DNA from: Candidatus Sumerlaeota bacterium
Lineage (GTDB): Bacteria; Sumerlaeota; Sumerlaeia; MWCT01; JAUWMI01
Direction: 5' to 3'
DNA: 64,000 nucleotides
NCBI GenBank assembly: GCA_030613245.1
Contig: JAUWMI010000004.1
Span: 32,610 to 96,609 of the forward strand
The translations under genes were made by a program, and so were the position numbers. Shown here in pieces: positions 32,131 through 56,376 of the stretch (positions are counted from its first letter, which is position 1; each line of letters opens with the position of its first letter). Below the pieces are notes generated by a model that saw only the letters and a list, made by a program, of their open reading frames with translations, searched no databases and had not been told where the DNA came from.

Positions 32131-33305
32131 AGATAACCGATCAAAATATCAGTTTGATTGTCAAGAAGCGCATTTGCTGCGGCTGTGGCGGTTGCACCGT
32201 CATCTGTCCGCAGGCATGTATAGAAATGATCAGTGGCCGGCACTTCAACTATCCTCAAGTTCAGGTTGACGGATGTATAAAGTGTGGAAAATGCATTCAG
32301 GTATGTCCGAGCACGCACTTGCTGGAAAACCTAGATGAGAAACTGTATGTGTCGCATTTAAATGAGGCCTATAACTACTGGATTGCTCATGCTAATGACG
32401 ATGCAATACGGACAGAAGGAGCTTCAGGAGGATTTGTTTCGGCGTTCTTGATCTATCTGCTGCGCGCGCAAGAGATAGACGGAGCTGTAGTAGCATGCGG
32501 AGATGATTCCGATCCGCTTTTGAACCGGTCGTTTCTTGCTACTGATGAGAAAGGGATTCTGGCGGCGTGTGGGTCCAGATATGGTCCGGTTTCAAATTGT
32601 ACGGCCCTTGAACAAATAATAAAGAAACCAGGAAACTACGCATTTGTTGGGAAGCCGTGTGAAATTCAGGCTTTGCGCAAATTGCAAGATCTTGTCCCTG
32701 AGCTGAAAAAGCGCATTCACTTATCAATAGGAATCTTTTGCGCATGCACTCCTCCGCGCAGCAACACAGCATCTTTTCTATCCCGATGGGGTGTGAGATT
32801 GCAAGACGTACGGAAGATTCAATACCGGGGGCACGGCTGGCCTGGTTTGTTCCGGGCATCGAATGGTCGCAAGATATTGCTTGAAAGGCCATACATGGAT
32901 GCCTGGCGGCACCTCGTGGCAACTAATCCATCAATCAGATGCATGCTGTGTTTCGATACATTTGCCGATGCTGCGGACGTATCGGTCGGTGATCCGTGGG
33001 GCGAAGAACTCATTGCCTCGGAACAAAGAGGACTATCACTGGTTGTGGTAAGAAGTAAACGAGCGAAGGATAACATTCGATCTGCAGAAAAGTCCGGCGC
33101 TATCAGCCTTATAGAAACCACACGAGCCGACGTACTCACATGTCAGAAGGCGCTTGTGGGTAAGGTCCAAAAAGCAAGGGCAAAAGTTCTTGTTTATCAG
33201 ATCATCTCTCAGAAGCGGGTGCAAGAACCACTAACGCTATGGAAAAATAGATTTTCGATGGCAAGGTCACTGTTGAGACAATATGCGAAGCGCCATTACT
33301 ATTGA
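32127..33305 (+). CDS. FrhB/FdhB-like (coenzyme F420 hydrogenase beta subunit-like) protein with two N-terminal 4Fe-4S ferredoxin motifs
   Basis: CCGCGGCTVICP and CIKCGKCIQVCP. It overlaps the pyruvyl-transferase stop; these two families are well known to pair in EPS loci. Confidence 0.7.
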   Translation: MKITDQNISLIVKKRICCGCGGCTVICPQACIEMISGRHFNYPQVQVDGCIKCGKCIQVCPSTHLLENLDEKLYVSHLNEAYNYWIAHANDDAIRTEGASGGFVSAFLIYLLRAQEIDGAVVACGDDSDPLLNRSFLATDEKGILAACGSRYGPVSNCTALEQIIKKPGNYAFVGKPCEIQALRKLQDLVPELKKRIHLSIGIFCACTPPRSNTASFLSRWGVRLQDVRKIQYRGHGWPGLFRASNGRKILLERPYMDAWRHLVATNPSIRCMLCFDTFADAADVSVGDPWGEELIASEQRGLSLVVVRSKRAKDNIRSAEKSGAISLIETTRADVLTCQKALVGKVQKARAKVLVYQIISQKRVQEPLTLWKNRFSMARSLLRQYAKRHYY

Positions 33306-36952: not shown

Positions 36953-38248
36953 ATGAACCTGGCAAGGTTTATATTTAACTCTCGGGGGATCAGTAATCTT
37001 TTGCACCGTTTTTGGAGCTTGTTTTGCCGCTTTGGCTTTACGCCGGCACGCATGGAGAAGCAGTTGCAAAAGATGACGGATATTTGCAAGGCCCACGATA
37101 TTCTGCCAACATTTCCAGCCACTGCTTGCATCTTAAGGCGGTACCCGAAGCCAATTACGAGACTGCAGGCACAGGGTGTGGAGTTTGCTGTGCATGGACT
37201 AGTGCACACGGATTACACGCAACTTCCGTTTGAGAAACAGCGAGAGCATTTTGAGCAAGCGATAGAGATTTTTGAAAAAGCCGGGATTCGCATGTGTGGG
37301 TTTCGCTCGCCTTATTTGCGCAGTAACAACGACACTCATCTAGCGGTTAGCGATTGCAATTTTGTATGGGCAAGTAATTTTGTTATCCATTGGCCAGTGG
37401 TGGAGCAGGGTGAGTTTCCTCCTCAGGCATGGGAGGCCTACCAGAAGGTTCTGGAGCTTTATAGCAGCCAGTCAGCAACACAATATCGCGTCATTCCACA
37501 CCTGCTAGACGGTCATGTGGAAATTCCGGTTTCCGTCCCAGATGACGAAGCCTGCGTGGATCGTCTGGAGCTTAAACGTGACAAGAGGCGCATCGGGCGC
37601 ATCTGGCAATCAATCTTGGAACAAAGCCATGCGCGTGGGGAAATCTTCACAGTGCAGCTCCATCACGAACGCCTGCCATTTTGCGATGAGGCGCTGGACT
37701 ATGTTTTGACAATAGCAGACCAGCTATCGCCGCCGGTTTTCAAGGGACAGCTAGCAACAATTGCTAATTGGTGGAAGCAGCGCAGGAGCTCAATCTTTCA
37801 TCTCGAGGTTGCGAGGGATAGCTACACACTCGAGCTTAAGACGCCCAAGGAAGCAACAATACTCTGCCGGGGCATGGAGGGCTCCAAAGACCACCTATTC
37901 TTTGCCAACTATACTCTGACAAGCAAACGGGTCTTCTCTGGTAGAGGGATTCTACCAGGAGTTGCGCTTAGTAGCCAGTGCCATCCGAGCTGGCGAGATT
38001 TTTTACAGGAAGAAGGATTCCTCACATTGGATCCGATGCACTGCGCTCGAGCTGCGTATGTGGTGGAGGAACCCAATATGCTAACCGAGGAAGGTGCTTT
38101 TAATGTACTTCAGGCAATAGACTCTGCGGATACTCCTATGGTGAGGCTTTGGCGATGGCCGCAAGGCTGCCGGAGCGCCCTATGTGTAAGTGGTGATATT
38201 GATTGTATGACGCTCCAGGATTTCTTATGGCGAATTTGGGAGGTATGA
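36953..38248 (+). CDS. Polysaccharide-deacetylase-like (NodB-related) family protein, putative
   Basis: It has a HGLVHTDY H-x-x-x-H-like motif, but the TFDDG motif is not evident, so the call is tentative. Confidence 0.4.
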   Translation: MNLARFIFNSRGISNLLHRFWSLFCRFGFTPARMEKQLQKMTDICKAHDILPTFPATACILRRYPKPITRLQAQGVEFAVHGLVHTDYTQLPFEKQREHFEQAIEIFEKAGIRMCGFRSPYLRSNNDTHLAVSDCNFVWASNFVIHWPVVEQGEFPPQAWEAYQKVLELYSSQSATQYRVIPHLLDGHVEIPVSVPDDEACVDRLELKRDKRRIGRIWQSILEQSHARGEIFTVQLHHERLPFCDEALDYVLTIADQLSPPVFKGQLATIANWWKQRRSSIFHLEVARDSYTLELKTPKEATILCRGMEGSKDHLFFANYTLTSKRVFSGRGILPGVALSSQCHPSWRDFLQEEGFLTLDPMHCARAAYVVEEPNMLTEEGAFNVLQAIDSADTPMVRLWRWPQGCRSALCVSGDIDCMTLQDFLWRIWEV

Positions 38249-39297
38249 TGGCTGTCTTTTGTACCAATCCATTAAACGATGCGCGCTGGCCAGGATTGCT
38301 GGAGAGACACGCCGACGCTTCTATTTTTCACACCCGCGAATGGCTGGAAGCATTATATCGTACTTACGGCTATGAACCCGTTGTGTATACAACTTCCAGT
38401 CCGGCATCAGATCTGACCGATGCAATTGTGTTTTGCAAAGTAAATAGCTGGTTAACTGGAAAACGTATGGTTTCTTTACCATTTTCAGACCATTGCCAGC
38501 CACTCATAGATTCTGCCGATGCCCTGCATGAAATTCTGGAGAAGTTGCAAAGTGATCAGACTGAACAGCAGCGGAAATACATCGAATTAAGACCGCTGCA
38601 TATGGACGAGGACTGGCTGCTGGAAAATGGATCACTTGCTGAAAGCGACACCTACTTTTTCCACTGCCTGAATCTGAAACCTACGCCTAATGAACTGATG
38701 CAAGGCTTCCATAAAGACTGCATCCAGCGACCAATTCGGCGTGCCCAGCGCGAGAATTTAACATTCAAGGAGGGGACGTCGGACGAGCTACAGTCGGCCT
38801 TCTATCACATGCTGCTTATGACACGCCGCAGACATCAATTGCCGCCTCAGCCGAAACAATGGTTTCGCAACTTGCAACAGTGCCTGGGCGAAAGATCTAA
38901 AATACGTATTGCGTTTAAGACTGATCAACCCATTGCTGCAATTGTAACACTTTCTTATAAGAATAAACACTACTATAAGTATGGATGCTCGGATCCAAGG
39001 CATAAGAACCTGGGAGGCACGGTTGCCCTTCTTTGGCGTGCCATGCAGGAGGCGCGGCAAGACGGAGCCCAAGAATTCGATATGGGGCGCAGCAGCATTG
39101 ACAATACTGGCCTGACTACGTTCAAAGATCGATGGGGGACTATGCGTAGAAGAATGTCATATTTCAGATCAGCTAACGTGTGCACGCATGATACTACCGA
39201 GGGATGGAAAATGAGAGTTGCAAAACAGGTCTTCTCGCACCTCCCGAATCCAATGCTGACTCTTGCAGGTAACTTACTATATAAACATATGGGCTAA
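38245..39297 (+). CDS. FemAB-like/GNAT-fold acyltransferase (resembles the PEP-CTERM-system-associated FemAB family)
   Basis: ATGA overlap with the upstream gene. The N-terminus reads NDARWPGLLERHADASIFHTREWLEALYRTYGYEP. Confidence 0.55.
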   Translation: MMAVFCTNPLNDARWPGLLERHADASIFHTREWLEALYRTYGYEPVVYTTSSPASDLTDAIVFCKVNSWLTGKRMVSLPFSDHCQPLIDSADALHEILEKLQSDQTEQQRKYIELRPLHMDEDWLLENGSLAESDTYFFHCLNLKPTPNELMQGFHKDCIQRPIRRAQRENLTFKEGTSDELQSAFYHMLLMTRRRHQLPPQPKQWFRNLQQCLGERSKIRIAFKTDQPIAAIVTLSYKNKHYYKYGCSDPRHKNLGGTVALLWRAMQEARQDGAQEFDMGRSSIDNTGLTTFKDRWGTMRRRMSYFRSANVCTHDTTEGWKMRVAKQVFSHLPNPMLTLAGNLLYKHMG

Positions 39298-39433
39298 GAG
39301 CCAATAGCCGTTTTTTTTTCTCGAAATAGGAAAGAAACACTTAATATACCGGCGCTTGTACCTATTACATCATAGCCGCAAGTCGTCTCTGACGTAAAGG
39401 TGAACAACATAGAAATACCTGGAAAGTTGTAAT

Positions 39434-40141
39434 ATGTGGATCGAAATAATACTATCAGCTATCGCCATAATGGCCGTCTTATATATTCTCTTCCCATGGG
39501 TAGTAAAACTAATTTTGCGGAAGGAGTTCTTGCGATTGGCAAACAAGAGTTCCGGCGTCTGTCTGACATTTGATGATGGTCCGGATCCTGTGTTCACGCC
39601 CAAGGTACTTGATATTCTTGCAAAGTTTAACGCAAGAGCTACCTTCTTCCCAATCGGCAAGAACGTAGAACGATATCCAGCTCTTATGAAAAGAATCATC
39701 GAGGAAGGACACGAATTGGGCGAACATGGTTACGATCATAAGCATCCATGGCTCACTGGGCCCTATGGTACGTGGATGGACGTATGGAAAGGCGGACGCC
39801 AGCTTGCGGCATATGCCAAGAATGGAGCCGTTAACCTCTTTCGACCTCCTTATGGGAAACTCAATCTTGTCTCAATGCTATATATTTACCGAAAGAAAAA
39901 GACAACCGTGTTTTGGAACCTTGATCCCAAGGATTACAGACTCTCGTCAGAAAATATGCTTATCCCGAACATCCAGAATCACATTACCAATGGAACGGTA
40001 ATATTATTTCATGACGGACGTTGCAATTTGGCGAAGGGCGGGCGTGATGCTACGCTTCGAGCCCTCGCAATGGTTCTTGAGTCAGCGCGCAATAAGGGAT
40101 TAGAGCCTGTTACCATTAAAGAGCTCTACCTAATTAAGTGA
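39434..40141 (+). CDS. Polysaccharide deacetylase (NodB domain)
   Basis: N-terminal TM anchor. LTFDDGPDP, ATFFPIG and HELGEHGYDH are the canonical NodB motifs 1-3. Confidence 0.85.
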   Translation: MWIEIILSAIAIMAVLYILFPWVVKLILRKEFLRLANKSSGVCLTFDDGPDPVFTPKVLDILAKFNARATFFPIGKNVERYPALMKRIIEEGHELGEHGYDHKHPWLTGPYGTWMDVWKGGRQLAAYAKNGAVNLFRPPYGKLNLVSMLYIYRKKKTTVFWNLDPKDYRLSSENMLIPNIQNHITNGTVILFHDGRCNLAKGGRDATLRALAMVLESARNKGLEPVTIKELYLIK

Positions 40142-40191
40142 AAAATCGACACCGCGGCTACTTGAAAAGAGAATATTAAAATCAGCCGTAT

Positions 40192-40689
40192 GTGCCAGAG
40201 GATTATATGAAAAACATTGCTTCTGACGTTAAGCTTGGGAAAAATGTTAAGATTTATGACTTCGTGAATCTTTATGGCTGCGAGATTGGCGATAACACGA
40301 AGATCGGAACCTTTGTAGAGATTCAGAAAGGAAGCAAGATAGGCAAGAATTGCAAGATTTCGAGTCATTCATTTATTTGCGAAGGGGTAACTATTGAGGA
40401 CAATGTATTTATTGGCCATAATGTAACGTTCATTAACGATGCGTATCCCCATGCAACAAAAGAAGATGGCACATTGCAGACAGATGAAGACTGGGTCTGC
40501 GTGCCAACCCTGGTAAGAAAGGGGGCCTCAATCGGTTCGAGTACCACTTTACTCTGCGGAATCACAATTGGTGAGAAGGCTGTTGTAGGTGCAGGAAGTG
40601 TTGTGACAAAAGACGTTCCACCGTTAACAATCGTCGCAGGCAATCCAGCTCGAATTCTGCGCAAAATCAACGAGGAGAAAAAGCAATGA
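40192..40689 (+). CDS. Left-handed beta-helix (hexapeptide-repeat) sugar N-acetyltransferase
   Basis: Repeated [LIV]G.N..I hexapeptides throughout; WbpD/PglD-like. Confidence 0.8.
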   Translation: MPEDYMKNIASDVKLGKNVKIYDFVNLYGCEIGDNTKIGTFVEIQKGSKIGKNCKISSHSFICEGVTIEDNVFIGHNVTFINDAYPHATKEDGTLQTDEDWVCVPTLVRKGASIGSSTTLLCGITIGEKAVVGAGSVVTKDVPPLTIVAGNPARILRKINEEKKQ

Positions 40690-41789
40690 CCGTTCCATTT
40701 CTGGACTTGAAAGCACAATATGTTTCAATCCGAGATGAGATACACGAAGCACTAACACGGGTTATGGATAACACGGCGTTTGCAGGCGGTCCGGCTGTTG
40801 CAGGATTTGAAAAAGAGTTTGCTTCATTTTGCGGCTGTGAGTTTGCCGTGGGTGTGGGCAGTGGCACAGAAGCCCTTTGGCTAAGCCTTCTTGCTCTTGA
40901 AATTGGTTCCGGGGATGAAGTGATCACTGTCCCGAATTCGTTCATTGCCACAGCAGAAGCTATTAGTTTCACTGGCGCTAGGCCCGTTTTCGTAGATGTT
41001 GATGAGCAAACCTACAATATGAATCCTGATTTGCTCGAAGCTGTGATTACGAAAAAGACAAAGGCCATTATTCCTGTTCATCTATTTGGTCACACTGCCG
41101 ATATGGACGCAATCCTGGCAATCGCAAAGAAAAAGGGACTTTATGTCGTAGAAGATGCGGCCCAGGCTCATGGGGCTCAATACAAAGGACAGCCTGCGGG
41201 CTCACTGGGCATCGCGGGATGTTTTAGCTTCTACCCGGGCAAGAACCTGGGTGCATACGGTGAGGCAGGCGCTGTAGTTACAAACGATGCGTCTCTTGCA
41301 GAGAAAATTCAGATGCTGCGCGATCACGGCCAAAAAAAGAAGCATGAACACGCGTGGATCGGGTGGAATTCGCGCATGGACGGTTTCCAGGGTGCCATTC
41401 TGAGTGTAAAATTGAAATATCTATCCGAGTGGAACGAGGCACGGCGTAGGTGTGCACGGCGCTATAATGAGCTGCTTGAGAATTCGAGCATTGTCACTCC
41501 CACTGAAGCAGACTATGCCAGGCATGTTTATCACATCTACGCAATTTGCACAAGGAATCGTGACAATTTGAAAAACTCCCTGGCTCAAAAAGGTGTGCAC
41601 TGTGGAATTCACTATCCGATTCCAATTCATCTGCAGCCAGCGTACGCATTTCTTGGCTATAAAAAGGGCTCGTTTCCAGTGACTGAAAAGTGCGTTCAGG
41701 AACTCCTCTCCTTGCCTATGTATCCGGAATTAAGCGCCGAGCAAATTGAAACTGTGACTACGGCAATTTTGGCCGAAGTCCACAATTAG
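40686..41789 (+). CDS. DegT/DnrJ/EryC1/StrS family PLP-dependent sugar aminotransferase
   Basis: The N-terminus is MTVPFLDLKAQY. The PLP-lysine region is FSFYPGKNLGAYGEAG. Confidence 0.9.
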   Translation: MTVPFLDLKAQYVSIRDEIHEALTRVMDNTAFAGGPAVAGFEKEFASFCGCEFAVGVGSGTEALWLSLLALEIGSGDEVITVPNSFIATAEAISFTGARPVFVDVDEQTYNMNPDLLEAVITKKTKAIIPVHLFGHTADMDAILAIAKKKGLYVVEDAAQAHGAQYKGQPAGSLGIAGCFSFYPGKNLGAYGEAGAVVTNDASLAEKIQMLRDHGQKKKHEHAWIGWNSRMDGFQGAILSVKLKYLSEWNEARRRCARRYNELLENSSIVTPTEADYARHVYHIYAICTRNRDNLKNSLAQKGVHCGIHYPIPIHLQPAYAFLGYKKGSFPVTEKCVQELLSLPMYPELSAEQIETVTTAILAEVHN

Positions 41790-41815
41790 GTAAATTTAAC
41801 ACATGGAAAAGTCCT

Positions 41816-43030
41816 ATGAATAATAAAACGGCAATAGTTATTCCCTGTCTCATCCCAGGACTGGCAGTTATTCGGAGCCTTGGCCGGAAGGGTGTCCCTA
41901 TTATAGCCCTGCACCATCAGAACAGTGAGATGGCGCAGGTGTCAAAATACGTCCGGGAGAGAATTTGCGTGCCGGACCTACAAACCTCAGAAGACGCATT
42001 CATCTCTTTTCTTCTTGACAAAGGAAAGGATTGGAAGGGAAGTCTGCTATTTCCCTGCGGTGAGTTTGAGCTCGTTGCTATTTCCAAGCATAAGCATGAA
42101 TTGCAATCGGCATATGTTGTGGCTGCTCCCGATTGGGATCTCGTCGAAAAAGTAATAGTAAAGAAACACACCTACCAGATTGCAGAGAAACTGGGAATAC
42201 CATCTCCTAAGACGATGGTCCCTAATTCAATAGATGATATTGAAAGATTTAAAAATGACATAGACTACCCTTGCCTGGTCAAGCCATGCGAAGCCCACAA
42301 GTTCTACGAAGTCTTCGGATGCAAGATGTTTGAAGTTAAAAATGAGGACCAGTTATATACATCCTTCAACAGAGCATCAGACGCGGGATTGGAAGTAATG
42401 ATTCAAGAACTGATCCCGGGCGACGATACATGTGGTGTAAATTACAACTCATACTTCTGGGAGGGCTCACCTGTAGCAGAATTCACTGCGGAAAAAGTCA
42501 GGATTCATCCGCCCAAGTTTGGATCCCCGAGAGTGCTTCTGAGCAAGTGGATTCCGGAAATCATTGAGCCCGGCAGAACTTTGCTTAAAGAGCTAGGTCT
42601 TTCTGGCTTCTCATGCACAGAATTTAAGCGTGATATTCGCGACGGTGTTTACAAATTTATGGAAGTAAATGCCAGAACTAACCTTTCCGGCTCTCTGGCA
42701 GTAAAATGCGGCATAAATTTCCCATGGATCATATACCGACACTTAATGTACAACGAAATCCCACCTTTTGGTGAGCAGAAAATGGGAATATATTGGATGG
42801 ATATTGTAAAAGATGTGACGCACTTAATTATGTCACGCAATATAGAGCATTTTACAATGAGGCAGTACGTAAAGCCTTATTTGAAGAAGAAGATTTATGC
42901 TATTTTTTCCTGGAAAGATCCGATGCCTTTTATTGTGTTGATGCGGTACATCGTAACCAAGGCATTTACAAAAGTCCGAGAGGGCTTGCGCAGACATTGC
43001 AAATATTTGAATCCCAGAAAGAGTAAATAG
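41816..43030 (+). CDS. ATP-grasp domain protein (carboxylate-amine ligase-like)
   Basis: ATP-grasp core EVMIQELIPGD...FMEVNAR. Confidence 0.7.
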   Translation: MNNKTAIVIPCLIPGLAVIRSLGRKGVPIIALHHQNSEMAQVSKYVRERICVPDLQTSEDAFISFLLDKGKDWKGSLLFPCGEFELVAISKHKHELQSAYVVAAPDWDLVEKVIVKKHTYQIAEKLGIPSPKTMVPNSIDDIERFKNDIDYPCLVKPCEAHKFYEVFGCKMFEVKNEDQLYTSFNRASDAGLEVMIQELIPGDDTCGVNYNSYFWEGSPVAEFTAEKVRIHPPKFGSPRVLLSKWIPEIIEPGRTLLKELGLSGFSCTEFKRDIRDGVYKFMEVNARTNLSGSLAVKCGINFPWIIYRHLMYNEIPPFGEQKMGIYWMDIVKDVTHLIMSRNIEHFTMRQYVKPYLKKKIYAIFSWKDPMPFIVLMRYIVTKAFTKVREGLRRHCKYLNPRKSK

Positions 43031-43044
43031 TCCGGTAACCCGCC

Positions 43045-43920
43045 ATGTGGCAACGAATGAGTATAGATGAATACGCTGAGTTCAACAGGGGGATGGGAGT
43101 AAAAGTACGTCAAGAAAATGGGGTCTGGTGGCAACAACAGCATCCTTTCTTCTATCGCCCAGTTTTCCCTTTCTTGCAATTGACCTCCAGAGATGTAGGT
43201 GAACATCCGCGATGCCTGGGTGCAGTGCAACATGCAGTGCCTCAGGGAGAGCCCTGCAATTCTCATATGAATTTCATCGTTTATGAACAGCCGGGCTCGT
43301 ATAAACTTAGTACATTGCCAAAGGTTAACAAAAAAAGAATCTTGAAGACGCATAAACATCTGACGATACGTCCCATACTTGATCAGAAGGAGTTTATTGC
43401 TCAAGGATATCCTGTATACCTGTCTTTCTATAAACGGACGCGTTACTCTTACAAGAGCGATCGAAGAAACCCAAAGATATTCGCCGAGTGGACTCGTACC
43501 CTGTTCCGCTTCCCTAAGGTTGTGGTTTTGGGGGCGTATTCCCAGCATAAATTGCTGCAAATTGACATCAGCTGCTTGGTAGAAGATACCTTGTTTCAGC
43601 TAAGCACCATCAATTCCAACGAAGCACTGGAATTGCAAATCTCAGATCTGGTGCTCCACATAGAAAGAGAGCTTGCTGCAAAGCATGGAGAAATCAAACA
43701 CATATTTTCTGGATCGCTCGCACAGAAGGAGAGTTTAAACAAGTTCAAGATCCAGCGAGGGGCGTGTGTTCTTATTATGCCTGCTTATCTACATTGTCAT
43801 CGTGCGCTCCTTTCTTTGATCAAATTTACCCGAAAAAATCTGTACGATCGACTGATAGGGTTGGATAAAACACAGGTCCAAAACAAAATGAAAACGGCAG
43901 TCTGCACAGAATTGGTGTGA
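43045..43920 (+). CDS. Hypothetical protein (possibly FemAB/GNAT-like acyltransferase); its N-terminus is duplicated at 44753-45043
   Basis: 291 aa. No firm motif; there is weak resemblance to the FemAB fold. Confidence 0.4.
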   Translation: MWQRMSIDEYAEFNRGMGVKVRQENGVWWQQQHPFFYRPVFPFLQLTSRDVGEHPRCLGAVQHAVPQGEPCNSHMNFIVYEQPGSYKLSTLPKVNKKRILKTHKHLTIRPILDQKEFIAQGYPVYLSFYKRTRYSYKSDRRNPKIFAEWTRTLFRFPKVVVLGAYSQHKLLQIDISCLVEDTLFQLSTINSNEALELQISDLVLHIERELAAKHGEIKHIFSGSLAQKESLNKFKIQRGACVLIMPAYLHCHRALLSLIKFTRKNLYDRLIGLDKTQVQNKMKTAVCTELV

Positions 43921-43943
43921 TTTTTGCATCCCGGTAAAGGAAC

Positions 43944-44750
43944 ATGATGCGCGTACAAAGCTCAAAAGAAAGATCCGTTATAGATTGGCCAAACAAACCT
44001 ATTATTTCACCGGAGGACTTCGTTAAAGCCGAGTATTCCAATCCTGAGTTTGTCCGGAAATACATGACTGTCGGCTTATGGCGATCAGAGGAAGTCTTGA
44101 TGGAGCGCTACTTTGAGCCGAAGAGTTCTGTGCTTGATTTAGGATGTGGGGCAGGCCGAGCAACCATTGCCATGGCACAAAAAGGATTTAAGGTTACTGG
44201 GATTGACCTGATTCCGGAAATGATTGAGGCCGCGAAAAGTCAGGCGGCTATAAACGGTCTTCAACTTGATTTCAGGGTGATGGATGCACGAAATCTATCT
44301 TTTCCCCATGAGTCCTATCAGAATGTCCTTTTTTCATTCAATGGATTTGACCAAATACCAGGAAAAGCCAGCCGTAGGCAATTACTCGAGGACGTCCACC
44401 GCATACTCAAACCAGGCGGATGCTTCATTCTTTCCTGCAGATCTGGGCTGGCATTTGGTAAAAGATGGGCCACGTGGATCTGGCTTGCCCTGGAGTTCCT
44501 TGTGCGAAAAGTTAGCGGTCGCATTAAACCAGGTTGGGAGTGGGGGGACAAGATTCGCAAGGGCTGGTATCACCATTATTCCACACCATTTAGCATCCGG
44601 AAGGCTCTTCAACAGGTCGGATTAGAGCTAGTCTATTTTAATTCCAGCCGTAATATCGAAAAAGGCAAGCGACCCACTTTCCTGACTAACTTCTCTCCGG
44701 ACAAGAGTCTTTTCTTTGTCGTTAGAAAATCAGCGGATAGCAAGAAATAA
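43944..44750 (+). CDS. Class I SAM-dependent methyltransferase
   Basis: Motif I is VLDLGCGAGR and the post-I acidic residue is GIDL. Confidence 0.8.
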   Translation: MMRVQSSKERSVIDWPNKPIISPEDFVKAEYSNPEFVRKYMTVGLWRSEEVLMERYFEPKSSVLDLGCGAGRATIAMAQKGFKVTGIDLIPEMIEAAKSQAAINGLQLDFRVMDARNLSFPHESYQNVLFSFNGFDQIPGKASRRQLLEDVHRILKPGGCFILSCRSGLAFGKRWATWIWLALEFLVRKVSGRIKPGWEWGDKIRKGWYHHYSTPFSIRKALQQVGLELVYFNSSRNIEKGKRPTFLTNFSPDKSLFFVVRKSADSKK

Positions 44751-44752
44751 CT

Positions 44753-45043
44753 ATGAGAACACTGACTCAGAAGCTTTCTGGAGACACTGCAATAGACCCA
44801 ATTTCCCTGTGGGAGCGCATGAGCATAGATGAGTACGCCGAGTTTGAAATGGTGATGCGCGTAAAGCTTCAGAAGAAAGGGGGAGTTTGGTGGCATCAAA
44901 TACGCCCATATTTCTACAGGCCCCTGTTTCCCTTTGTAGAATTGTCCCCCAACCAAACGAAAGGACTCTTTGGCAAGTTTGCAGCCTTTCAACATCCTGT
45001 GTCCCCGGTACATCAGCACAATTCTTACATAAATTTTCAGTAA
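44753..45043 (+). pseudogene. Truncated duplicate of the N-terminal ~85 aa of the 43045-43920 protein
   Basis: Compare WERMSIDEYAEF..GVWWHQIRPYFYRPLFPF with WQRMSIDEYAEF..GVWWQQQHPFFYRPVFPF. It ends after 96 codons. Confidence 0.5.
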
Positions 45044-45500
45044 AGTTCGAAAGAATCTCTTTAAGCGGTTGAAAGGAATGGATGAAAGGCAGATCCAGAG
45101 CCTAATCAAGAGGACACGTCCTGGTAACAAATAACCACCCGCTGGCTGAGACACAATTATAAGCAAGAGTCAAATCGCAGAATAAATGAGATTTTCAGAT
45201 TGACTATGCAAATGCTCCTCTTCGCCCATGCATCTGATCGCGGCAGAATATTCTAATCCGTTTCGTGAAAAAGGAACATCTGGAGACTCACGCAAGTAAA
45301 CTTGCATCAGAGGAATCTAAAAGTTTCCTAGCCTATCTTTATGAGTTGCAACAGAAGTTATTTTTCGATCATGAGCTCTTCCAAATTGTCAAAAAAGGAA
45401 AGGGCGTGTTTAGCTTAACTAAGAGCGTCTGTTCAAGCTCCGCTTTGAGAAACTATAGTACATAGATTGATCGCGTTTTTGGCAAGCAGGTGTTTAAACT

Positions 45501-47132
45501 ATGTCAATAGGAAATGTCGGCAAGAAAATAGGGGAACAGGTTTATATAACCGGCGAAACAATAGGGATCCATAAAGCAGACAATAAAGGGCGACAAATAT
45601 GGTGGTTTGGGAGTGACCCATCCGAGGGTATTCCATCCCCTGGAGCATTCATAAAAGACCTTCAAGCCAAACGTCTCCGCAAAATAGCTCCGCCCTGGGC
45701 AGCGGTTACTGTTGGAAAGAAAGATGAAGGCGTTTGGGCCTGCACAGACGCCATAGGGTTGCAACACCTATTCCTTAGAAAAGTTGGCAAAGATACTATT
45801 GTTGGACCAGATGTTTTTAAACTCGCTGCGCATGCACCAGTGTATATTGACTCCATAGGTGCGTATGAACTCTTTTGCATGGGAAATCCCCAAGGCGGGA
45901 GAACTCTGTTTTCAGACGTACGCCTAATACCTCCAGCCACCCAGATTCGGCTCGACACTCCTTACACAGTGGATACATACTGGTCCTTACCTCAGCCATC
46001 CCCAGGTCATCCGGAGCATGCCATTAAAACATTCATTGATGCATTGATAAAGGCAGTTACCAGGAGCTGGCGACCCGGCTGTGCACTGGAGCTTACGGGT
46101 GGGCGAGATAGTATGCTAAATTTGCTTGCTTACTTAAAAGCAGGTATTCCTGTAAAAACTTGGACACATGGGTTAAAAGGGAATTTTGATATGGTTGCAG
46201 CACGTGCCCGCGCAAAAAGCCTGGGGGTCCCTCACCAGCCCATCTTCACGGAACGTTTAGAGAAACTAAGTCCTTTTGAGGCGGGGAACTTGGCAATTAA
46301 CTTTTTGAATGCCTCGGGAGGACAAGCGAATATCCTTGAATACTGGCACCTACGTTGGATACTTCAGCAGCTTAAGGCTACCGGCTCAATTAGCGGTGTA
46401 GGAGGCGAAGTATTCCGCGGTTTCTACTATGAATGGACCGGTCGAGGAGTGCTTCCTAAATATATCACCGAGCTAATGCTTCTTCGTGGAAAAGCCAGAC
46501 ACAGTATGCCTTTTCCTGCTTCCTTTCTCGATAAAAGATTCATACAGTTAGGGGAACCAGCAGTACATGATGAGTTAAGGCAGCTTCTAGAATATAGAAA
46601 GACTTCGTGCCATAGCCTGGATGCTTACTACTTGGCCAAGCGTATGCATCATTTCTGTGGCACCACGTGGTCGGCTACAGGCCGCTGGCGCCCAGTACGA
46701 GCGCCTCTTTTCGATCCAGACGTTATCGATTGTCTGTCGCTAGTGCCAATTGAATTCCGCTTCCATTCACGCCTAGTGGATGAAGTCACTCGGCGTCTGT
46801 TGGGGGATCTACCGTCAGTTAGCCTGCCGAAGTTACAAAAGACAAGACGAATTGTGCGCTTGTATAGAAAGGTAAGGAACGCTCGGGGAGCTGTTTTTAG
46901 AAATTTCCAGAATGTTACTGCTCGTCTTGTTTTGAATTCGCCCCAGGCACTCGTTGCGCTTGCACTAGATGACATGCGCACAGGCTGTCTTTACAATAGA
47001 TCTGTTCTTAAGCGACATATTGCAAAAACAACAGTGGGAAGGCAAGCGGTTAGCATGCCATTGGGTGCTTTGCTAACCATCGAGCTCGCAGCCCGGGCCG
47101 TTGGAGACGCATTTAGAGGAATAGACATATGA
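45501..47132 (+). CDS. Asparagine-synthetase-B-like (PP-loop ATP pyrophosphatase) amidotransferase, lacking the N-terminal Cys nucleophile
   Basis: PP-loop is LTGGRDSM. There is no Cys2, so glutaminase activity is doubtful. Confidence 0.65.
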   Translation: MSIGNVGKKIGEQVYITGETIGIHKADNKGRQIWWFGSDPSEGIPSPGAFIKDLQAKRLRKIAPPWAAVTVGKKDEGVWACTDAIGLQHLFLRKVGKDTIVGPDVFKLAAHAPVYIDSIGAYELFCMGNPQGGRTLFSDVRLIPPATQIRLDTPYTVDTYWSLPQPSPGHPEHAIKTFIDALIKAVTRSWRPGCALELTGGRDSMLNLLAYLKAGIPVKTWTHGLKGNFDMVAARARAKSLGVPHQPIFTERLEKLSPFEAGNLAINFLNASGGQANILEYWHLRWILQQLKATGSISGVGGEVFRGFYYEWTGRGVLPKYITELMLLRGKARHSMPFPASFLDKRFIQLGEPAVHDELRQLLEYRKTSCHSLDAYYLAKRMHHFCGTTWSATGRWRPVRAPLFDPDVIDCLSLVPIEFRFHSRLVDEVTRRLLGDLPSVSLPKLQKTRRIVRLYRKVRNARGAVFRNFQNVTARLVLNSPQALVALALDDMRTGCLYNRSVLKRHIAKTTVGRQAVSMPLGALLTIELAARAVGDAFRGIDI

Positions 47133-47224
47133 ATGGTTATGAATTTTCCTATAGCAACGTTGCGTCATCGGGGAATAATCTATAATCTTTAGGCAGGAAC
47201 CCTCTATAGTCTTACTTACGTACA

Positions 47225-47255
47225 ACCAATAAAATGCCCGGTCGAGACCGGGCAT
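47225..47255 (-). terminator. Rho-independent terminator downstream of the beta-helix protein gene, in the convergent intergenic gap
   Basis: Perfect 8-bp stem ATGCCCGG/CCGGGCAT with a 6-nt loop, followed on the minus strand by TTTTATTGG. Confidence 0.45.
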
Positions 47256-47358
47256 CGGGTAATTTCAATTCATATGCCATCTATGTCCCAATCAGGCGCC
47301 TCCTGAGGTCTTTCCACACCTTCGAGAACAAGAACAACAATTCTATCCGGTAAATCAA

Positions 47359-50300
47359 TTAAGGATAAGGAATCGTGAGATAATCGACTGCAACGCTGTC
47401 CATGTAGATGGTACCGCCCTTCGCCGCGTTGAAGTCAAGCAAATCGATCGTCACGACGAACCCATCCTCTGACGGCGTTGGTGAGCCGGGCAAGATTGGG
47501 GTCTCCCAATAGAGCTCATACCCAGTACCACCAACTGTTGGCATTGCGCCTGGGCCACCGGCGCCTTGGCTATTCAGTTCCATCGTCTTCGTCATCTGTG
47601 CGTCGTCATTCTGGCACCGCAGCCTGATCTGTGGCATGTCATTTCGGGCCGCATCAGTCGCGCACCTCAGCGTGTATGTCGCCCGATAGAGCTTATCCGC
47701 CACATAGGTTAGCTCATTTGCCGTCCAGCTCGACTGCCAGAATCCCGAATTGCTCGAGTCAGCAAGGCTGGACGCAATGGAGAGCGTGCCAGTACCATCA
47801 CCACCTGACGTAACTGGACCGTAGCCAACGTTTGTTAAGAATTGCCAGTTCGCAAAATCAGCAGATGAGCTATACGTCTTAACCGATGTGCCAGATGCCA
47901 AACGTGGGAACCGCTCCACTGTAATCCGATCCACATAGTGCGTGCCATACTGCCCCGCGTCGAAGTCAACCATATCAAAGGCAACACCAAGGTTATATGC
48001 CAAGATCGGCGCAAAATAGATGGCGTATTCTCGCTGTATTGGATCAGTTGGTAAGGAGTTGCTGTACGAGCCTGACGGGTTCACGACGTGCGATGCCGAC
48101 TCCAGAGATTGATCCTGGGTCCACCGCATGCGAAACTGCGGATTCGCAGAAGCCGTGGCTTGACTGGAGGAAGCCAAGAACCGGGCCCGATACACATTAT
48201 CCGCCAAGCAAGGAATGTCCAGCGGCCCAATCCAGAATCCGACGCGGTTTGTCGTATCATTCGCCGAACTGATGCTTATTCGACCACCGCTATAGCCGGA
48301 CCATGCCCCGGAGAAGCCCGGACCACTTAGCGGTAGAAATGACCAGCCTTCAAGAGAGGCATCAAACGTATATTGCGGGAGAGGCATAATAGGAGCTGCA
48401 TCATAGATAGCTTGAATCTCTTCCTGGCCCAGAGCTCGGTTGTAGATACGGACATCATCGATGATTCCATTAAATGTATTGCTAAAAGGCTGCCATGTAA
48501 TACTATCACCAATTAAAACTTGTGAAGTGCCCTGGTAAATTCCCCCATTATAACCTTGAGGGCTTCCGCTTGATGAACCATCAATATATAATTGTACATA
48601 ACTCCCGTCGTAAGTAGCTGCTATATGATGCCAGGTATTTAAAGTCATACCAGAATCTGCCCAAAATCTAATATGGTTCCCACTTGAACCATCAGGACTT
48701 AATAGAAAAAGAGGTGTCGTACCTCCTACCCCAAGCCAATAAGAAACTTGTTCATCCTTAGTTAATACAGCACTCCATGCTTTTGATTGCTCCAAATAAA
48801 CCCATGCAGCAATTGTCATTGATTCAGGGTCTAGATCATCATGGTGAGGAATTGTAACCTTATCATTACTTCCGTCAAAATCTAAAGCATAATTAATCCT
48901 TCCCTCTGTCCATAATGGGCCATTGATTAAAGTTCCATCATGACCATTACCTGAGGAGTCTTGTGCAGTTGTGCCAGCTTCTTCATCAAGTTTCCAGTGT
49001 GCAATTAAACCATCAGTTACATCAGCTCTATATACATAATCTATCTGGGTTGGCTGGATTGGATTCAAAGCGGTATCTTTTACATCTTCTACTGTTAAGG
49101 TATATGTCAGCCCATCTGTATGAGAAGAGGTTGTTAAAGTAACAGTTATAAGATCAAACCCAAGCGAAGCCTGCGTTATTGATATGCCATTGTTGATACT
49201 ATAATTTGTTATATTTTCTGCTGACAATGTATCTAGGGCCTCATTGAAAACAATATTAATGGATGTCTCTTGTGTTATAACTGAAACAATAGAAGGTGGG
49301 GTTGTATCAGCCAATGTAGTAGCTGAGACAGGGGGCGATTTATCAGATTCATTTCCTGCAAAATCATATGCTAGAACTTGGTATGTATATGTAGTAGAAG
49401 GAGTAAGCTCTGTATCAGAATAGGTAACTGTAGTAGATGTTGCTATTTCAACACCCTCTCTGTATATCTTATATCCTGCCAGTGCTACATTATCAGTCGA
49501 TGCATCCCAGGATAGGTCTATTTGCTGATGGGATACTGCAGTAGCAATTAGAGTCTGTGGTACTGTAGGCGGTTCTGTGTCAATGACACCAGGATATTCA
49601 TAAGCACCTATATCCCAGCCAGCACCTTGTGGTCTTGGGTCTCCAGCAATGTCTTTTGTGAAATCATAATACTCGCCATATTTTAATTGAAGTTCATTAA
49701 GTATGCTAGTTATGTCAGTTCCTGCATCAATTGCAATACTGCCTGGTTTTAGATGATAATTCCAGTCAGCACGATTAGCACCACTAACATCAGCAAGTAT
49801 TTTTGTTAAATCTGGTTCATAAATTTCATTTGTGCCTGAGCTTGAACCTAAAACAGTATAAATATTATGTGAGATATCTGCTCCAGGTTTATCCACTGGT
49901 CGAGCTATAATATTATTTTTCATGATTAAATTATCAATAGCGCCTATACCATAAAGAGTAATTGGTGGGGTATAACCACTGAAAAGAACATTGTTTAGAA
50001 CTTTCACATTTTTGGCACCAGATCCCCAAACAGTAATAGGGCATGTGCCTGATCCTTCTTTTGCTATTAAAATATTGTTGTAAACAGTTAGGTCATCTGC
50101 CCTATGTATTGCAAGAGGTCTTTGGCCTCCAAAAACCACATTACCAGCAACTAGAATATTTCTGGTAAAACATGAAGGACAAACTTCAGCTGCCGCGTGG
50201 TCATGATATATTGTAATTACATTGGTATGGCCTGAAGGAGCACAGTCATAGAATTTATTATTTATTACTACTATTGTCCCACCGCCACTCTCAATCCTCA

Positions 50301-50940
50301 TTCCATTAGGAGTTCTTTCGAGAGTATTGTTTCTGATAATAAGTTTGCCTCCCTCCGCACCAGCGTATATTCCTCTTGAGTCTGTATCATGTATATAATT
50401 ATTTTCAATAATACAAACATCGTCACTAGCCTCAAACCTCACATCGTAAATATCTCCAAGATCTACTGCTCCAGAGAGGCCACTATTGCCACTTACTTCA
50501 TTATTTCTTACAATCATATTTAATCCAGGAGTGTCTCCTAAAATTCCGGCATTCTGTACTCTAAATCCTTCTATAGTTATATAATTATAACCAGTATTTT
50601 TTATATGATTTCCATTCACGATAGCTTTTGTTCCTTCTAAATCGGGCCAATTGTCTCCTCTGTATGTTATATGATTTCCAGATACACCACTTGCTTTAAT
50701 ACTTATGCTCCCTCCATAAATCACTCCTCCTTTAAATAATACAGTGTCTCCAGGCTGCAAGCTGGCAGAAGCTGGGTTGCCTGTTGCATTTGGGTCACCG
50801 GGGGCATGTTTCCAAGGGGTAGATGCCGATAAACCAGTGTTTGTATCACGGCCATTTTCAAAATCTACATAGTAGTCTGCCTGAGCAAAACTGCATAACA
50901 AGAAAAAGGGAACCAGAAAAACCACAACTACGTACTTCAT
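47359..50940 (-). CDS. Large secreted multidomain protein: right-handed parallel beta-helix (pectin-lyase fold) + FN3 + Ig-like + LamG/ConA-like + two C-terminal beta-sandwich (CBM-like) modules
   Basis: Signal peptide MKYVVVVFLVPFFLLCSFAQA (start at 50940 with GGAGTGG SD). PbH1-type repeats (IENNYIHDTDSRGIYAG...). The FN3 region is PPTVPQ...YKIYR...TYTYQV. The LamG region is ...HWKLDE..GNGHDGTL....DFDGSNDKVTIP. Confidence 0.8.
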   Translation of the reverse strand: MKYVVVVFLVPFFLLCSFAQADYYVDFENGRDTNTGLSASTPWKHAPGDPNATGNPASASLQPGDTVLFKGGVIYGGSISIKASGVSGNHITYRGDNWPDLEGTKAIVNGNHIKNTGYNYITIEGFRVQNAGILGDTPGLNMIVRNNEVSGNSGLSGAVDLGDIYDVRFEASDDVCIIENNYIHDTDSRGIYAGAEGGKLIIRNNTLERTPNGMRIESGGGTIVVINNKFYDCAPSGHTNVITIYHDHAAAEVCPSCFTRNILVAGNVVFGGQRPLAIHRADDLTVYNNILIAKEGSGTCPITVWGSGAKNVKVLNNVLFSGYTPPITLYGIGAIDNLIMKNNIIARPVDKPGADISHNIYTVLGSSSGTNEIYEPDLTKILADVSGANRADWNYHLKPGSIAIDAGTDITSILNELQLKYGEYYDFTKDIAGDPRPQGAGWDIGAYEYPGVIDTEPPTVPQTLIATAVSHQQIDLSWDASTDNVALAGYKIYREGVEIATSTTVTYSDTELTPSTTYTYQVLAYDFAGNESDKSPPVSATTLADTTPPSIVSVITQETSINIVFNEALDTLSAENITNYSINNGISITQASLGFDLITVTLTTSSHTDGLTYTLTVEDVKDTALNPIQPTQIDYVYRADVTDGLIAHWKLDEEAGTTAQDSSGNGHDGTLINGPLWTEGRINYALDFDGSNDKVTIPHHDDLDPESMTIAAWVYLEQSKAWSAVLTKDEQVSYWLGVGGTTPLFLLSPDGSSGNHIRFWADSGMTLNTWHHIAATYDGSYVQLYIDGSSSGSPQGYNGGIYQGTSQVLIGDSITWQPFSNTFNGIIDDVRIYNRALGQEEIQAIYDAAPIMPLPQYTFDASLEGWSFLPLSGPGFSGAWSGYSGGRISISSANDTTNRVGFWIGPLDIPCLADNVYRARFLASSSQATASANPQFRMRWTQDQSLESASHVVNPSGSYSNSLPTDPIQREYAIYFAPILAYNLGVAFDMVDFDAGQYGTHYVDRITVERFPRLASGTSVKTYSSSADFANWQFLTNVGYGPVTSGGDGTGTLSIASSLADSSNSGFWQSSWTANELTYVADKLYRATYTLRCATDAARNDMPQIRLRCQNDDAQMTKTMELNSQGAGGPGAMPTVGGTGYELYWETPILPGSPTPSEDGFVVTIDLLDFNAAKGGTIYMDSVAVDYLTIPYP

Positions 50941-51590
50941 TACAACCACTCCTTTCCAACAGGAACAAGAACTTTTCCGGCATGCGCAAGAATTTAAAAA
51001 ATTCAATTAGGCTGTTATCCCCTTAATTCAAACAAATGGAAGCCTTACATTAAGAAGACGAGAGAGTCAATAAACAACCATACTGCGTGGATGTTGAAAG
51101 ACATAAAATATCGCAATCTGATGAGACATTGCCGTTTCGCAACCTAAATGGCATTAATACTTTGCATCTCCGATCAGTGGTCATTATTAAACTAGGCATG
51201 ATTTTCTTAAGAGCCACACGGCCACTTTGCTTCAGTCGCATGATCACACTGGACTATATATAAGCCTGGAAATCAGCAACATGTTAAAGATTTTCAATAC
51301 ATTCGTGTGCAAAGCCCACAAGAAATACATACTATATCACTTAGCAAAAATAGACTGCTAAATTTCCGGTTGGCCAAGCAACTGTGCCACAGAGCATTGA
51401 TTTGCCTTCCCTTAAAGCTCTAAGTCTGGCAAGGAGTCGAATTCGCTCTTCATGCATTTTCCCTAACCAATACAAATGCTATGCTTTTGCATCGCGGAAC
51501 ATCGGCAAGAAATAGAAAGGTAATATTCGGTCTCGTTTTTGTTGCAAAGTTATGGAACAACCACGCAGGCGCAAAACTATAGATTATTTT

Positions 51591-54244: not shown

Positions 54245-54569
54245 GGAAAGATACCAATGATTTCGAGAAGTTGCTTTTAGGCTACCTATTTTTGTCTTGC
54301 GACTCTTGCATTAAAAATAGGGATGAAGAATTACCTTGTATTTCTCCGACCTTAGAAGGCTTTGCAAAGCGGCGCATTTTAAAACACCACGGTGCTGTGA
54401 TAATTATTAGAGGCGGTCTCCTCGGGGAAGTCAATCTGACACGTACGCGCCGCCTCCTCAACGATCAATGCATTACATTTCAATGGATATATAACAAGTC
54501 CAAAAAGCCACTCTCAAAAATTTATACCTGCCTCCGTAACCTAAAGCGAGGACAACTAGGTGGCCGCCC

Positions 54570-55751: not shown

Positions 55752-55892
55752 ACATGAGGTCCCGGCCGAAGTGAAATACTAATCACTGCAAAGGTGATGA
55801 TAAACTGGCAAAAGTGAACTCGCCTAAGTCAAATCTCCATATACTCGTCTATGCTGCCACGATGAGCGTTTTATCTGTATGCTTGTTTATTC

Positions 55893-56153
55893 CTACTGAA
55901 GTAAATCTTTTGCTGCATCCTCTGCTTTCTCAACTTCTTCTTCAGCTTTCTTCTCTAATTGCGCGGCTTCTTCTTTTGCTGCTTCCAGTGCTTCTTTAGC
56001 TTCTTTCTCAGCCTCTATTTTTGCTTTTTCAGCTTCCTCTACTTCTGCCTGTGGTACAGCTGGCGCTTGGGCTTGTTCCTGCCCCCCACAGCCGCTCATA
56101 ATTAGTGCCAATAATCCAAGAACTACCACCAGTACTGTCATCAATCTCATCAT
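55893..56153 (-). CDS. Small Ala/Glu/Lys-rich coiled-coil lipoprotein
   Basis: Signal plus lipobox MMRLMTVLVVVLGLLALIMSGC. The remainder is low-complexity (EAEKAKIEAEKEAKEALEAAKEEAAQLEKKAEEE). Confidence 0.5.
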   Translation of the reverse strand: MMRLMTVLVVVLGLLALIMSGCGGQEQAQAPAVPQAEVEEAEKAKIEAEKEAKEALEAAKEEAAQLEKKAEEEVEKAEDAAKDLLQ

Positions 56154-56299
56154 TGACCTTCTCCTTTCTTTTTTTACAGATAAAACAGCAATAAACATGC
56201 GATATTCTACACTTTGCGTCAATCAAAATCTATTTTCTTAGATCCTTGTCTTCGCAGGGCCTAACTCATGCCAAATTCTTCCTCTGATCTTTATAGAAC

Positions 56300-56376
56300 T
56301 GGTCGGGGCGACTGGATTTGAACCAGCGACCACCTGAACCCCATTCAGGTACGCTACCAGGCTGCGCTACGCCCCG
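56300..56376 (-). tRNA. tRNA-Pro (anticodon GGG), CCA encoded
   Basis: Reverse complement: CGGGGCG-TA-GCGC-AGCCTGGTA-GCGT-A-CCTGA-ATGGGGT-TCAGG-TGGTC-GCTGG-TTCAAAT-CCAGT-CGCCCCG-A-CCA. The 7-bp acceptor is perfect, U33 and G37 are present, and there is a T-loop TTCAAAT. Confidence 0.85.

Follow-up and report, generated by a model that had tools for sequence, protein, structure and literature searches.

A predicted amino-sugar decoration module with two rare orphan protein families in an exopolysaccharide locus of Candidatus Sumerlaeota

The linking sugar of Porphyromonas gingivalis is a surface sugar to which an amino acid is attached. WbpA, WbpB, WbpE and WbpD make UDP-GlcNAc3NAcA, the AsnB-type enzyme WbpS makes the uronamide, the CE4 deacetylase VimE frees the C2 amine and VimA adds Ser or Gly (PMC7468200). 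Secreted proteins attach to the product, 2-N-seryl-3-N-acetylglucuronamide (PMC7468200). This Wbp/Vim pathway of P. gingivalis and Tannerella forsythia is the closest known system to the locus described here, which lies in a 64,000-nucleotide stretch of a Candidatus Sumerlaeota contig (JAUWMI010000004.1, positions 32,610 to 96,609; hereafter the window). Amino acids are also found on the sugars of many O-antigens and capsules and, to our knowledge, the enzymes that attach them are not known for most such glycans. A Wzx/Wzy-type exopolysaccharide locus spans ~22.7-55.8 kb of the window; the part considered here, 40192-47132, lies at its distal end and closes with the gene for an AsnB-like protein that has no N-terminal Cys. 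An earlier note made from the sequence alone had named five genes in this segment, for a hexapeptide N-acetyltransferase, a DegT aminotransferase, an ATP-grasp ligase, a methyltransferase and the AsnB-like protein, and open reading frame (ORF) listing, translation and domain scans place all five, intact, exactly where it put them. Absent from that note were a 291-aa gene, the remnant of a paralog of that gene in what looked like a gap, a deacetylase/FemAB-like pair at 36953-39297, and the fact that part of the segment is a partly decayed mosaic cassette. A sugar-decoration module in a polysaccharide locus is of a known kind; this one forms a new variation on it through its particular enzyme set, in which two members belong to very rare orphan families and one cassette varies from strain to strain.

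The explanation that we favour for the module as a whole, and to which we give a probability of about one half, combines synthesis of a 3-amino sugar, Fem-type aminoacylation, an optional ATP-grasp ligation and amide formation by the AsnB-like enzyme. Three amide-forming chemistries would then surround one 3-amino-sugar pathway: aminoacyl-tRNA transfer, acyl-phosphate ligation and acyl-adenylate ligation. The first step is well supported by homology and is the sole one for which that homology is strong; the steps beyond the 3-acetamido sugar we infer from predicted folds, motifs and gene neighbourhood.

The predicted 3-amino-sugar pathway and its variable cassette

The putative pathway enzymes are encoded on the plus strand, as are all genes below unless stated otherwise. 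A Gfo/Idh/MocA oxidoreductase (28195-29301, begun at 28246 in the earlier note; Pfam GFO_IDH_MocA, 7e-27) is a candidate UDP-GlcNAc 3-dehydrogenase for the WbpB-like step. Its best NCBIfam match is NF040723, UDP-GlcNAc 3-dehydrogenase (7e-53, 180 bits, under the cut-off of 450), an archaeal enzyme annotated for UDP-GlcNAc and not GlcNAcA, and its match to WlbA (3q2k) is just 2e-12. The DegT-family pyridoxal-phosphate aminotransferase (40686-41789, 367 aa; DegT, 1.2e-121), predicted to be of the sugar C3 type, shows the SFYPGK lysine motif in its translation. Its best solved relatives include the C3 aminotransferases QdtB (7e-113), DesV (6e-99) and WbpE (4e-89), and the single best structure is 7b0d (1.2e-128), deposited as glutamine--scyllo-inositol transaminase. 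The hexapeptide-repeat protein (40192-40689, 165 aa; Pfam Hexapep, 3.6e-29) is a predicted left-handed beta-helix N-acetyltransferase of the WlbB/QdtC/FdtD type, and the best solved relatives are all 3-amino-sugar N-acetyltransferases: FdtD-like 4mzu (2e-28), 7s43, WlbB (3mqg, 3e-22) and QdtC (4e-19). These matches point to a WbpE-type C3 aminotransferase and a WbpD-type N-acetyltransferase, with the sugar and nucleotide specificity a prediction. Genes for all three activities are contiguous in other, unrelated loci (L003 and L018 in our numbering of comparison loci), which together with the homology supports the WbpB/WbpE/WbpD-like trio proposed in the earlier note. In step 1 the trio would convert UDP-GlcNAc to the 3-keto and then the 3-amino sugar, and on to UDP-2,3-diacetamido-2,3-dideoxy-hexose.

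The earlier note went further and predicted a diacetamido-uronic sugar. We looked for a UDP-sugar 6-dehydrogenase (WbpA; UDPG_MGDP_dh) and a 2-epimerase (WbpI; Epimerase_2), and found neither in a scan of the 64 kb that covered all ORFs of at least 180 aa except four nested in larger opposite-strand genes. A uronic acid is thus not supported here, and the homologies of the trio support a 2,3-diacetamido hexose as the likely product.

In step 2, sugar amines would carry amino acids instead of acetyl groups, or after acetyl removal. The amine could be the C3 amine introduced by the DegT protein, or a C2 amine exposed by a CE4-type polysaccharide deacetylase (36953-38248, 431 aa; Pfam Polysacc_deac_1, 2e-11; TIGR03006, the XrtA-system deacetylase, 1.8e-8). 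This protein occupies a VimE-like position and is predicted to be cytoplasmic, with no transmembrane-type hydrophobic segment in its sequence. The adjacent gene (38203-39297) encodes a 364-aa FemAB-like/Acetyltransf_6 protein (Pfam Acetyltransf_6, 3e-13; FemAB, 3e-12) that matches TIGR03019, pepcterm_femAB, at 9e-33, under the cut-off of 260. VimA matches the TIGR03019 family too (PMC7468200), so that a CE4 deacetylase stands next to a TIGR03019-type transferase, with the likeness to VimE and VimA resting on these curated family matches. The pairing is kept in L005 and L012, and it makes the locus resemble the Wbp/Vim pathway.

The 364-aa protein would be one of the step 2 enzymes. The second candidate is the 291-aa protein (43045-43920), an intact ORF of an orphan family with 13 homologs among 5.8 billion proteins; neither Pfam nor NCBIfam models nor PDB sequences match it. 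The family alignment was used to build an AlphaFold2 model (predicted local distance difference test score, pLDDT, of 88), which has a double-GNAT fold, and its best whole-chain matches are the aminoacyl-tRNA-dependent transferases FemX, MprF and Sbb17. Both step 2 proteins would probably use aminoacyl-tRNA, as does the Fem-like enzyme Orf11, which glycylates an amino sugar from Gly-tRNA (PMC12945691). FemX depends on Lys305 (PMC12945691), and the 291-aa family has an invariant Lys235 within FKxxRG that may be its counterpart. The family's few Pfam matches are faint: Acetyltransf_6 in 2 of 14 members (best E 0.021), FemAB_like in one of the 14 (0.0029), and further weak matches that also point to ATE_C. 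The window protein itself matches none of the FemAB, Acetyltransf_6 and FemAB_like models, and an hhalign comparison of its family with the neighbouring FemAB-like protein gives a probability of 0.1%, which is no signal. Alternatively, the 291-aa protein would be an acyl-CoA-dependent tandem-GNAT N-acyltransferase that places acetyl or another short acyl group on the amino sugar with no aminoacyl-tRNA involved. We consider this possible, and a weaker candidate than aminoacyl transfer.

Directly downstream lies a class I S-adenosylmethionine-dependent methyltransferase (43944-44750, 268 aa; 8e-23; VLDLGCGAGR). Its gene is always paired with the 291-aa gene (L012, L009 and L017), and the enzyme would then methylate the newly added substituent. 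The 750-bp "gap" that follows (44751-45500) holds an internally deleted remnant of a 291-aa-gene paralog (44753-45110), detected by tblastn and including a 96-aa ORF at 44753-45043. Its two pieces correspond to residues 1-77 (44807-45037, 47% identical) and, immediately after, residues 262-283 (45045-45110).

On the other side of the 291-aa gene is the ATP-grasp ligase (41816-43030, 404 aa), an accessory gene whose domain assignment rests on weak but consistent matches (CPSase_L_D2, 1.6e-4; PRK12767-type, 9e-15; PDB 2pn1, 8e-7) and on the LVKP, QELIPG and MEVNAR motifs readable in its translation. The family is large, with 888 matches at E<=0.001, the best 120 of which are at least 47% identical. 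Automated names of the homologs are "D-aspartate ligase" or "predicted ATP-grasp superfamily ATP-dependent carboligase"; the former is a Joint Genome Institute (JGI) automated name on homologs ~50% identical, and is the sole basis for a likeness to Asl. In Geobacteraceae contigs two such ATP-grasp genes are embedded among Gfo, hexapeptide, DegT and methyltransferase genes, a context that supports a role on amino sugars. Taken with the family name, this makes the addition of an amino-acid substituent, which the earlier note had raised, a reasonable role. In step 3 the ligase would, optionally, add or extend such a substituent through an acyl phosphate. One of these Geobacteraceae loci (L018 1352-6161) runs Gfo, hexapeptide transferase, ATP-grasp, a phosphatidylserine-decarboxylase-like protein and DegT, an order that suggests another amino-acid-derived N-acyl decoration of a 3-amino sugar. 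We had also considered that an ATP-grasp gene might always come with a 291-like gene, but dropped the idea, as hhalign with the 291-aa family profile gave no signal against the 312-aa neighbour of the Geobacteraceae ATP-grasp gene.

Comparison with related strains shows how changeable this segment is. The closest genomic relative is L012, a contig of an "uncultured Candidatus Sumerlaeota bacterium" metagenome-assembled genome, whose AsnB-like protein is 89% identical and whose DNA is 84-94% identical across 36894-58770, except for the decayed stretch 44956-45500 and an indel at 54360-56293. Both L009 and L012 have the order ATP-grasp, 291-aa gene, methyltransferase, paralog, second Acetyltransf_6 gene and AsnB-like gene, with the paralog full length (308 aa) in L009 and nearly so in L012. 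The window retains the paralog as a remnant only and has lost the second Acetyltransf_6 gene. In L017 the ATP-grasp gene is cut to its first 48 codons and the paralog to fragments, while the 291-aa, methyltransferase and Acetyltransf_6 genes are retained. L005 and L006, with AsnB-like proteins 76% identical, lack the whole cassette and pass from DegT through a 400-bp spacer with a 58-bp relic to the AsnB-like gene. The cassette of ATP-grasp, 291-aa and methyltransferase genes is therefore mosaic and decaying, and is carried whole, partly or not at all by related strains. Across this series the AsnB-like gene is the constant, the 291-aa and methyltransferase genes stay together, and the ATP-grasp gene can be missing.

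The AsnB-like protein and its possible substrates

The AsnB-like protein (45501-47132, 543 aa) is assigned from weak sequence matches and a predicted fold to a rare, unnamed, Cys-less family of the asparagine synthetase B superfamily. No Pfam model matches it at E<=0.01, and the only curated families that it reaches are TIGR01536 (1.9e-6; 27.2 bits, where the cut-off is 267.1) and a family of macrolactam cyclases (2.4e-4). The family profile matches human asparagine synthetase (ASNS) at 4.8e-5, and a direct PDB sequence search gave three marginal matches to the same enzyme (E ~0.1). The AlphaFold2 model (pLDDT 84; predicted TM-score, pTM, 0.87) matches the whole two-domain AsnB fold: Foldseek retrieves TsnB9 (5e-16, TM-score 0.65), beta-lactam synthetase (9e-15) and E. 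coli AsnB (1.6e-10), with human asparagine synthetase and carbapenam synthetase as further matches. On this model, the protein would have both AsnB domains.

Alignment with human asparagine synthetase and two canonical bacterial AsnBs indicates which functional parts are kept. The PP-loop is retained (ELTGGRDS vs LSGG[IL]DS), as is the RxPxxD motif (PVRAPLFD vs ELRVPLLD). Cys1 and the glutamine-binding RGPD, NGEIYN and SDTEV segments have no counterpart and fall in gaps, the N-terminal domain being ~50 residues shorter. SGVGG-E aligns with SGEGSDE or SGEGGDE, so that Val replaces the AsnB catalytic Glu; in the wider clade this residue is V, A or L. The start, MSIGNVGKK, is preceded by an in-frame TAA two codons upstream of the ATG. 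The missing nucleophile recognised in the earlier note is a property of the family: none of the 15 aligned members has an aligned N-terminal Cys, and none of 26 more distant relatives begins with Met-Cys.

The family is very rare, with ~17 close homologs among 5.8 billion proteins and ~six 50%-identity clusters, of 1.84 billion, scoring better than 1e-78. Beyond a gap in the scores lies a broad clade of ~600-aa proteins (36 at E<=1e-30, 1105 at E<=1e-10), and no curated family covers the 26 members fetched. Searching genome and metagenome contigs with the profile of the family yielded only eight additional loci, of which five encode close relatives; this confirms the rarity and limits co-occurrence statistics. 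One of the relatives stands apart: in L009 (5547-7175) the match of the AsnB-like gene to the window protein is broken into three consecutive pieces, and the product called there has only 383 aa, which could reflect a pseudogene or assembly errors in the Logan contig.

In every context examined the family is found in a polysaccharide or glycan locus. In two lineages an alanine racemase gene directly follows the AsnB-like gene (L002, Scalindua japonica, 10001-12926; L022, 9914-12858), even though the AsnB-like proteins of the two are just 51% identical and the racemases just 44%. In that branch, the pairing hints that a D-amino acid, D-alanine, serves as co-substrate. The family is also often found near a hexapeptide transferase, Wzy, FemAB-type genes and a pyruvyl transferase/FrhB pair. 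In another lineage the last of these sits a short way upstream of the AsnB-like gene (L007 6291-9234; L002 17293-18597); overall, the pyruvyl transferase is present in 3 of 6 lineages, absent within 10 kb in L003 and undetected in L022 and L025.

In the last step of the explanation we favour, the PP-loop of the AsnB-like protein would adenylate a carboxylate on the glycan or its substituent and then join it in an amide bond to an amine from a source other than glutamine, an amino acid or substrate amine being likelier than free ammonia. Candidates for the carboxylate are a pyruvate ketal, an acidic amino acid carried as a substituent, and a uronate whose genes lie elsewhere. The sole carboxylate-introducing function encoded in the locus is a polysaccharide pyruvyl transferase (30808-32130), paired with an FrhB-like Fe-S protein from 32127 (the pair spanning 30808-33305). 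For this step, we assume that the protein is catalytically competent.

Five points weigh against this explanation. Most family members carry TAGRDS where the canonical PP-loop is SGGxDS, and the AsnB catalytic Glu is lost. With no uronic acid pathway in the locus, no carboxylate is assigned to the enzyme. The window lineage has no alanine racemase beside the gene. The 750-bp gap with its remnant separates the AsnB-like gene from the cassette, making co-transcription an assumption. Finally, the functions given to these proteins are all predictions.

In the alternative closest to the earlier note, the Wbp enzymes make a 2,3-diacetamido uronic acid that the Cys-less enzyme amidates with free ammonia to give a uronamide, as a WbpS-type protein. 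The WbpB/E/D-like trio and the retained PP-loop are as this would require, the Wbp/Vim pathway itself ends in a uronamide made by the AsnB-type WbpS (PMC7468200), and the Wbp genes are scattered in some genomes, so that WbpA could sit outside the window. However, the scanned ORFs encode no 6-dehydrogenase or 2-epimerase, the best match of the Gfo protein is annotated for UDP-GlcNAc, and the position of the AsnB catalytic Glu is occupied by Val. The "WbpS-like" label fares no better: TIGR03108, the WbpS family, does not match the AsnB-like protein even at E<=10, and the Scalindua japonica locus (L002) encodes a true TIGR03108-type enzyme (580 bits, 5e-174) together with the Cys-less homolog. 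The presence of both in one locus argues for different jobs rather than interchangeable ones. Another canonical Cys-type AsnB, not run against TIGR03108, is found in L007. A uronamide made in this way is therefore unlikely.

The loss of Cys1, of the glutamine site and of the catalytic Glu, together with the diverged PP-loop of most members, could also mean that the protein is a non-catalytic remnant, such as a scaffold or a substrate-binding subunit. We find this improbable, given the constraint on the sequence. The family alignment has 61 invariant columns across members just 34-48% identical, including PPW, D..GL.H, ELT.G.DS and GGEVFRGFYY (only its Val falls short of invariant); the Arg between the Gly and Asp of ELT.G.DS is conserved in at least 90%, and dN/dS, the ratio of non-synonymous to synonymous substitution rates, is 0.16-0.25 for the gene. 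Moreover, the beta-lactam and carbapenam synthetases, which are the next-best structural matches after TsnB9, are Cys-less and active, and we take them to have a non-Glu residue at the AsnB Glu348 position, as in the AsnB-like protein. Less probable still is a macrolactam (lasso-type) cyclase or other peptide-modifying enzyme unrelated to the sugar pathway, a reading that we rejected because its partner genes are absent: lasso cyclases are Cys-less AsnB relatives too, but the match to the albusnodin/ikarugamycin macrolactam cyclase family reaches 20 bits against a cut-off of 300, nothing nearby encodes a lasso precursor, a leader peptidase or an RRE protein, and the gene contexts are those of polysaccharide loci.

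The locus and its surroundings

Domain scans identify all the markers of a Wzx/Wzy-type locus. Directly upstream of the polysaccharide operon is a MerR-helix-turn-helix (HTH) and PilZ protein (22681-23532), followed by Wza (from 23702), Wzz (from 24568), a tyrosine kinase (from 26165) and a priming phosphoglycosyl transferase with an N-terminal GGDEF-like domain (26886-28238; 25.6 bits). The MerR-PilZ protein and the GGDEF-like domain suggest control of the locus by cyclic di-GMP. Beyond the Gfo gene come a GT4 glycosyltransferase (from 29641), the pyruvyl transferase/FrhB pair, Wzy (from 33397) and two GT2 glycosyltransferases. Between the FemAB-like and hexapeptide genes lies a second deacetylase gene (39434-40141), encoding a 235-aa NodB-type protein (Pfam Polysacc_deac_1, 5e-27) with an N-terminal membrane anchor (hydrophobic residues 1-19). 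Convergent with the AsnB-like gene, on the minus strand, is the gene for a 1215-aa beta-helix/fn3/Ig-like/LamG protein (47359-51006) that has an N-terminal hydrophobic signal-type segment, is conserved in L005 and L012, and could be a polysaccharide-modifying or polysaccharide-degrading enzyme. The minus strand beyond it encodes a GT2 glycosyltransferase and Wzx.

All nine genes tested between 36953 and 47132 are under purifying selection (dN/dS 0.07-0.29, with two relatives each), and are therefore real, constrained genes rather than chance ORFs. An Rfam scan of 39000-48000 gave no match, and a scan for promoters and terminators stayed at background level, the sole notable site being a GC-rich hairpin at 47233-47256, between the convergent genes. 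A six-frame scan of the window returned no PEP-CTERM-like tails and no exosortase domain was found in it; a link to exosortase was dropped.

Two features elsewhere in the window are recorded for completeness. The indel at 54360-56293 is strain-specific, adjoins tRNA-Pro (56300-56376) and holds a 393-aa membrane ORF (54570-55751) with no family match, where L012 has ~410 bp instead. Genes for a second Wzy_C protein and a GT4 glycosyltransferase lie within 3247-7709; the next gene there encodes a repeat-rich protein of 503 aa that matches no family and has a hydrophobic segment of signal type close to its N-terminus.

Comparison with known systems

Like the Wbp/Vim pathway, the locus has a candidate 3-dehydrogenase of the Gfo type alongside a DegT aminotransferase and a hexapeptide N-acetyltransferase; it also pairs a CE4 deacetylase with a FemAB-like transferase of the TIGR03019 type, and its gene set includes an AsnB-superfamily enzyme. 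It differs in that neither WbpA nor WbpI is among the scanned ORFs, in that its AsnB-superfamily protein has no glutaminase site and is outside the WbpS (TIGR03108) family, and in that the window showed neither a sortase-type system nor PEP-CTERM cargo. In addition, it encodes the ATP-grasp ligase and a second Fem-fold protein, from an orphan family and accompanied by its methyltransferase, and it retains the remnants of a third Fem-fold gene.

Individual enzymes have likely counterparts in other settings. The C-terminal amidoligase of Cj1438 from the Campylobacter jejuni capsule likewise belongs to the ATP-grasp class and makes an amide on a sugar of the capsule (PMC11800379), but it is of the TupA-like type, whereas the window protein is of the carbamoyl-phosphate-synthase-like (PRK12767) type, with no uronic acid pathway nearby. 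For the AsnB-like model, the best structural matches across both domains are beta-lactam synthetase, carbapenam synthetase and TsnB9, members of the AsnB superfamily whose amide bonds are made with nucleophiles other than ammonia released from glutamine. Neither beta-lactam synthetase nor carbapenam synthetase has an N-terminal Cys, as in the AsnB-like protein, yet identity to the three is 12-15%, the N-terminal domain is ~50 residues shorter, and the context is a polysaccharide locus rather than an antibiotic cluster.

The glutaminase-less AsnB relative and the Fem-fold 291-aa protein, both very rare, conserved and unnamed, are candidates for the missing enzymes that attach amino acids to surface glycans, and the strain-variable cassette is a natural series for linking genes to glycan structure. 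Its variation also illustrates how the decoration of surface polysaccharides diversifies in an uncultured phylum.

The peptidoglycan cross-bridge set offers a second parallel, as FemX/FemAB, Asl and AsnH, the last an asparagine synthase homolog (PMC4155827), represent the same three enzyme classes as the window (PMC4155827, PMC12945691): a fold of aminoacyl-tRNA transferases, an ATP-grasp ligase named D-aspartate ligase by automated annotation, and an AsnB-type enzyme capping a carboxylate as its amide. In the cross-bridge the acceptor is the Lys of the stem peptide, whereas in the window it would be a sugar amine of a Wzx/Wzy polysaccharide. AsnH is presumably a Cys-type enzyme, which the AsnB-like protein is not. 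Pursued further, cross-bridge logic (two to three Fem-fold aminoacyl-tRNA transferases adding amino acids, an Asl-like ATP-grasp ligase extending them and a glutaminase-less AsnB-type ligase) might build short peptide-like branches on the 2,3-diamino sugar, an idea that we regard as speculative. The AsnB-type adenylating ligase would then either cap a carboxylate or join it to an amino acid, which in the Scalindua branch would be D-Ala, and the Cys-less AsnB-like and 291-aa families would be two new glycan-aminoacylating enzyme families. Secreted proteins might be anchored to the polymer through the free amine that results, as in Wbp/Vim; if that amine serves as an anchor as in the type IX secretion system, the locus would bear on how proteins are tethered to exopolysaccharide. 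The overall logic proposed for the module matches that of the Wbp/Vim pathway and also that of peptidoglycan cross-bridge building by Fem, Asl and AsnH.

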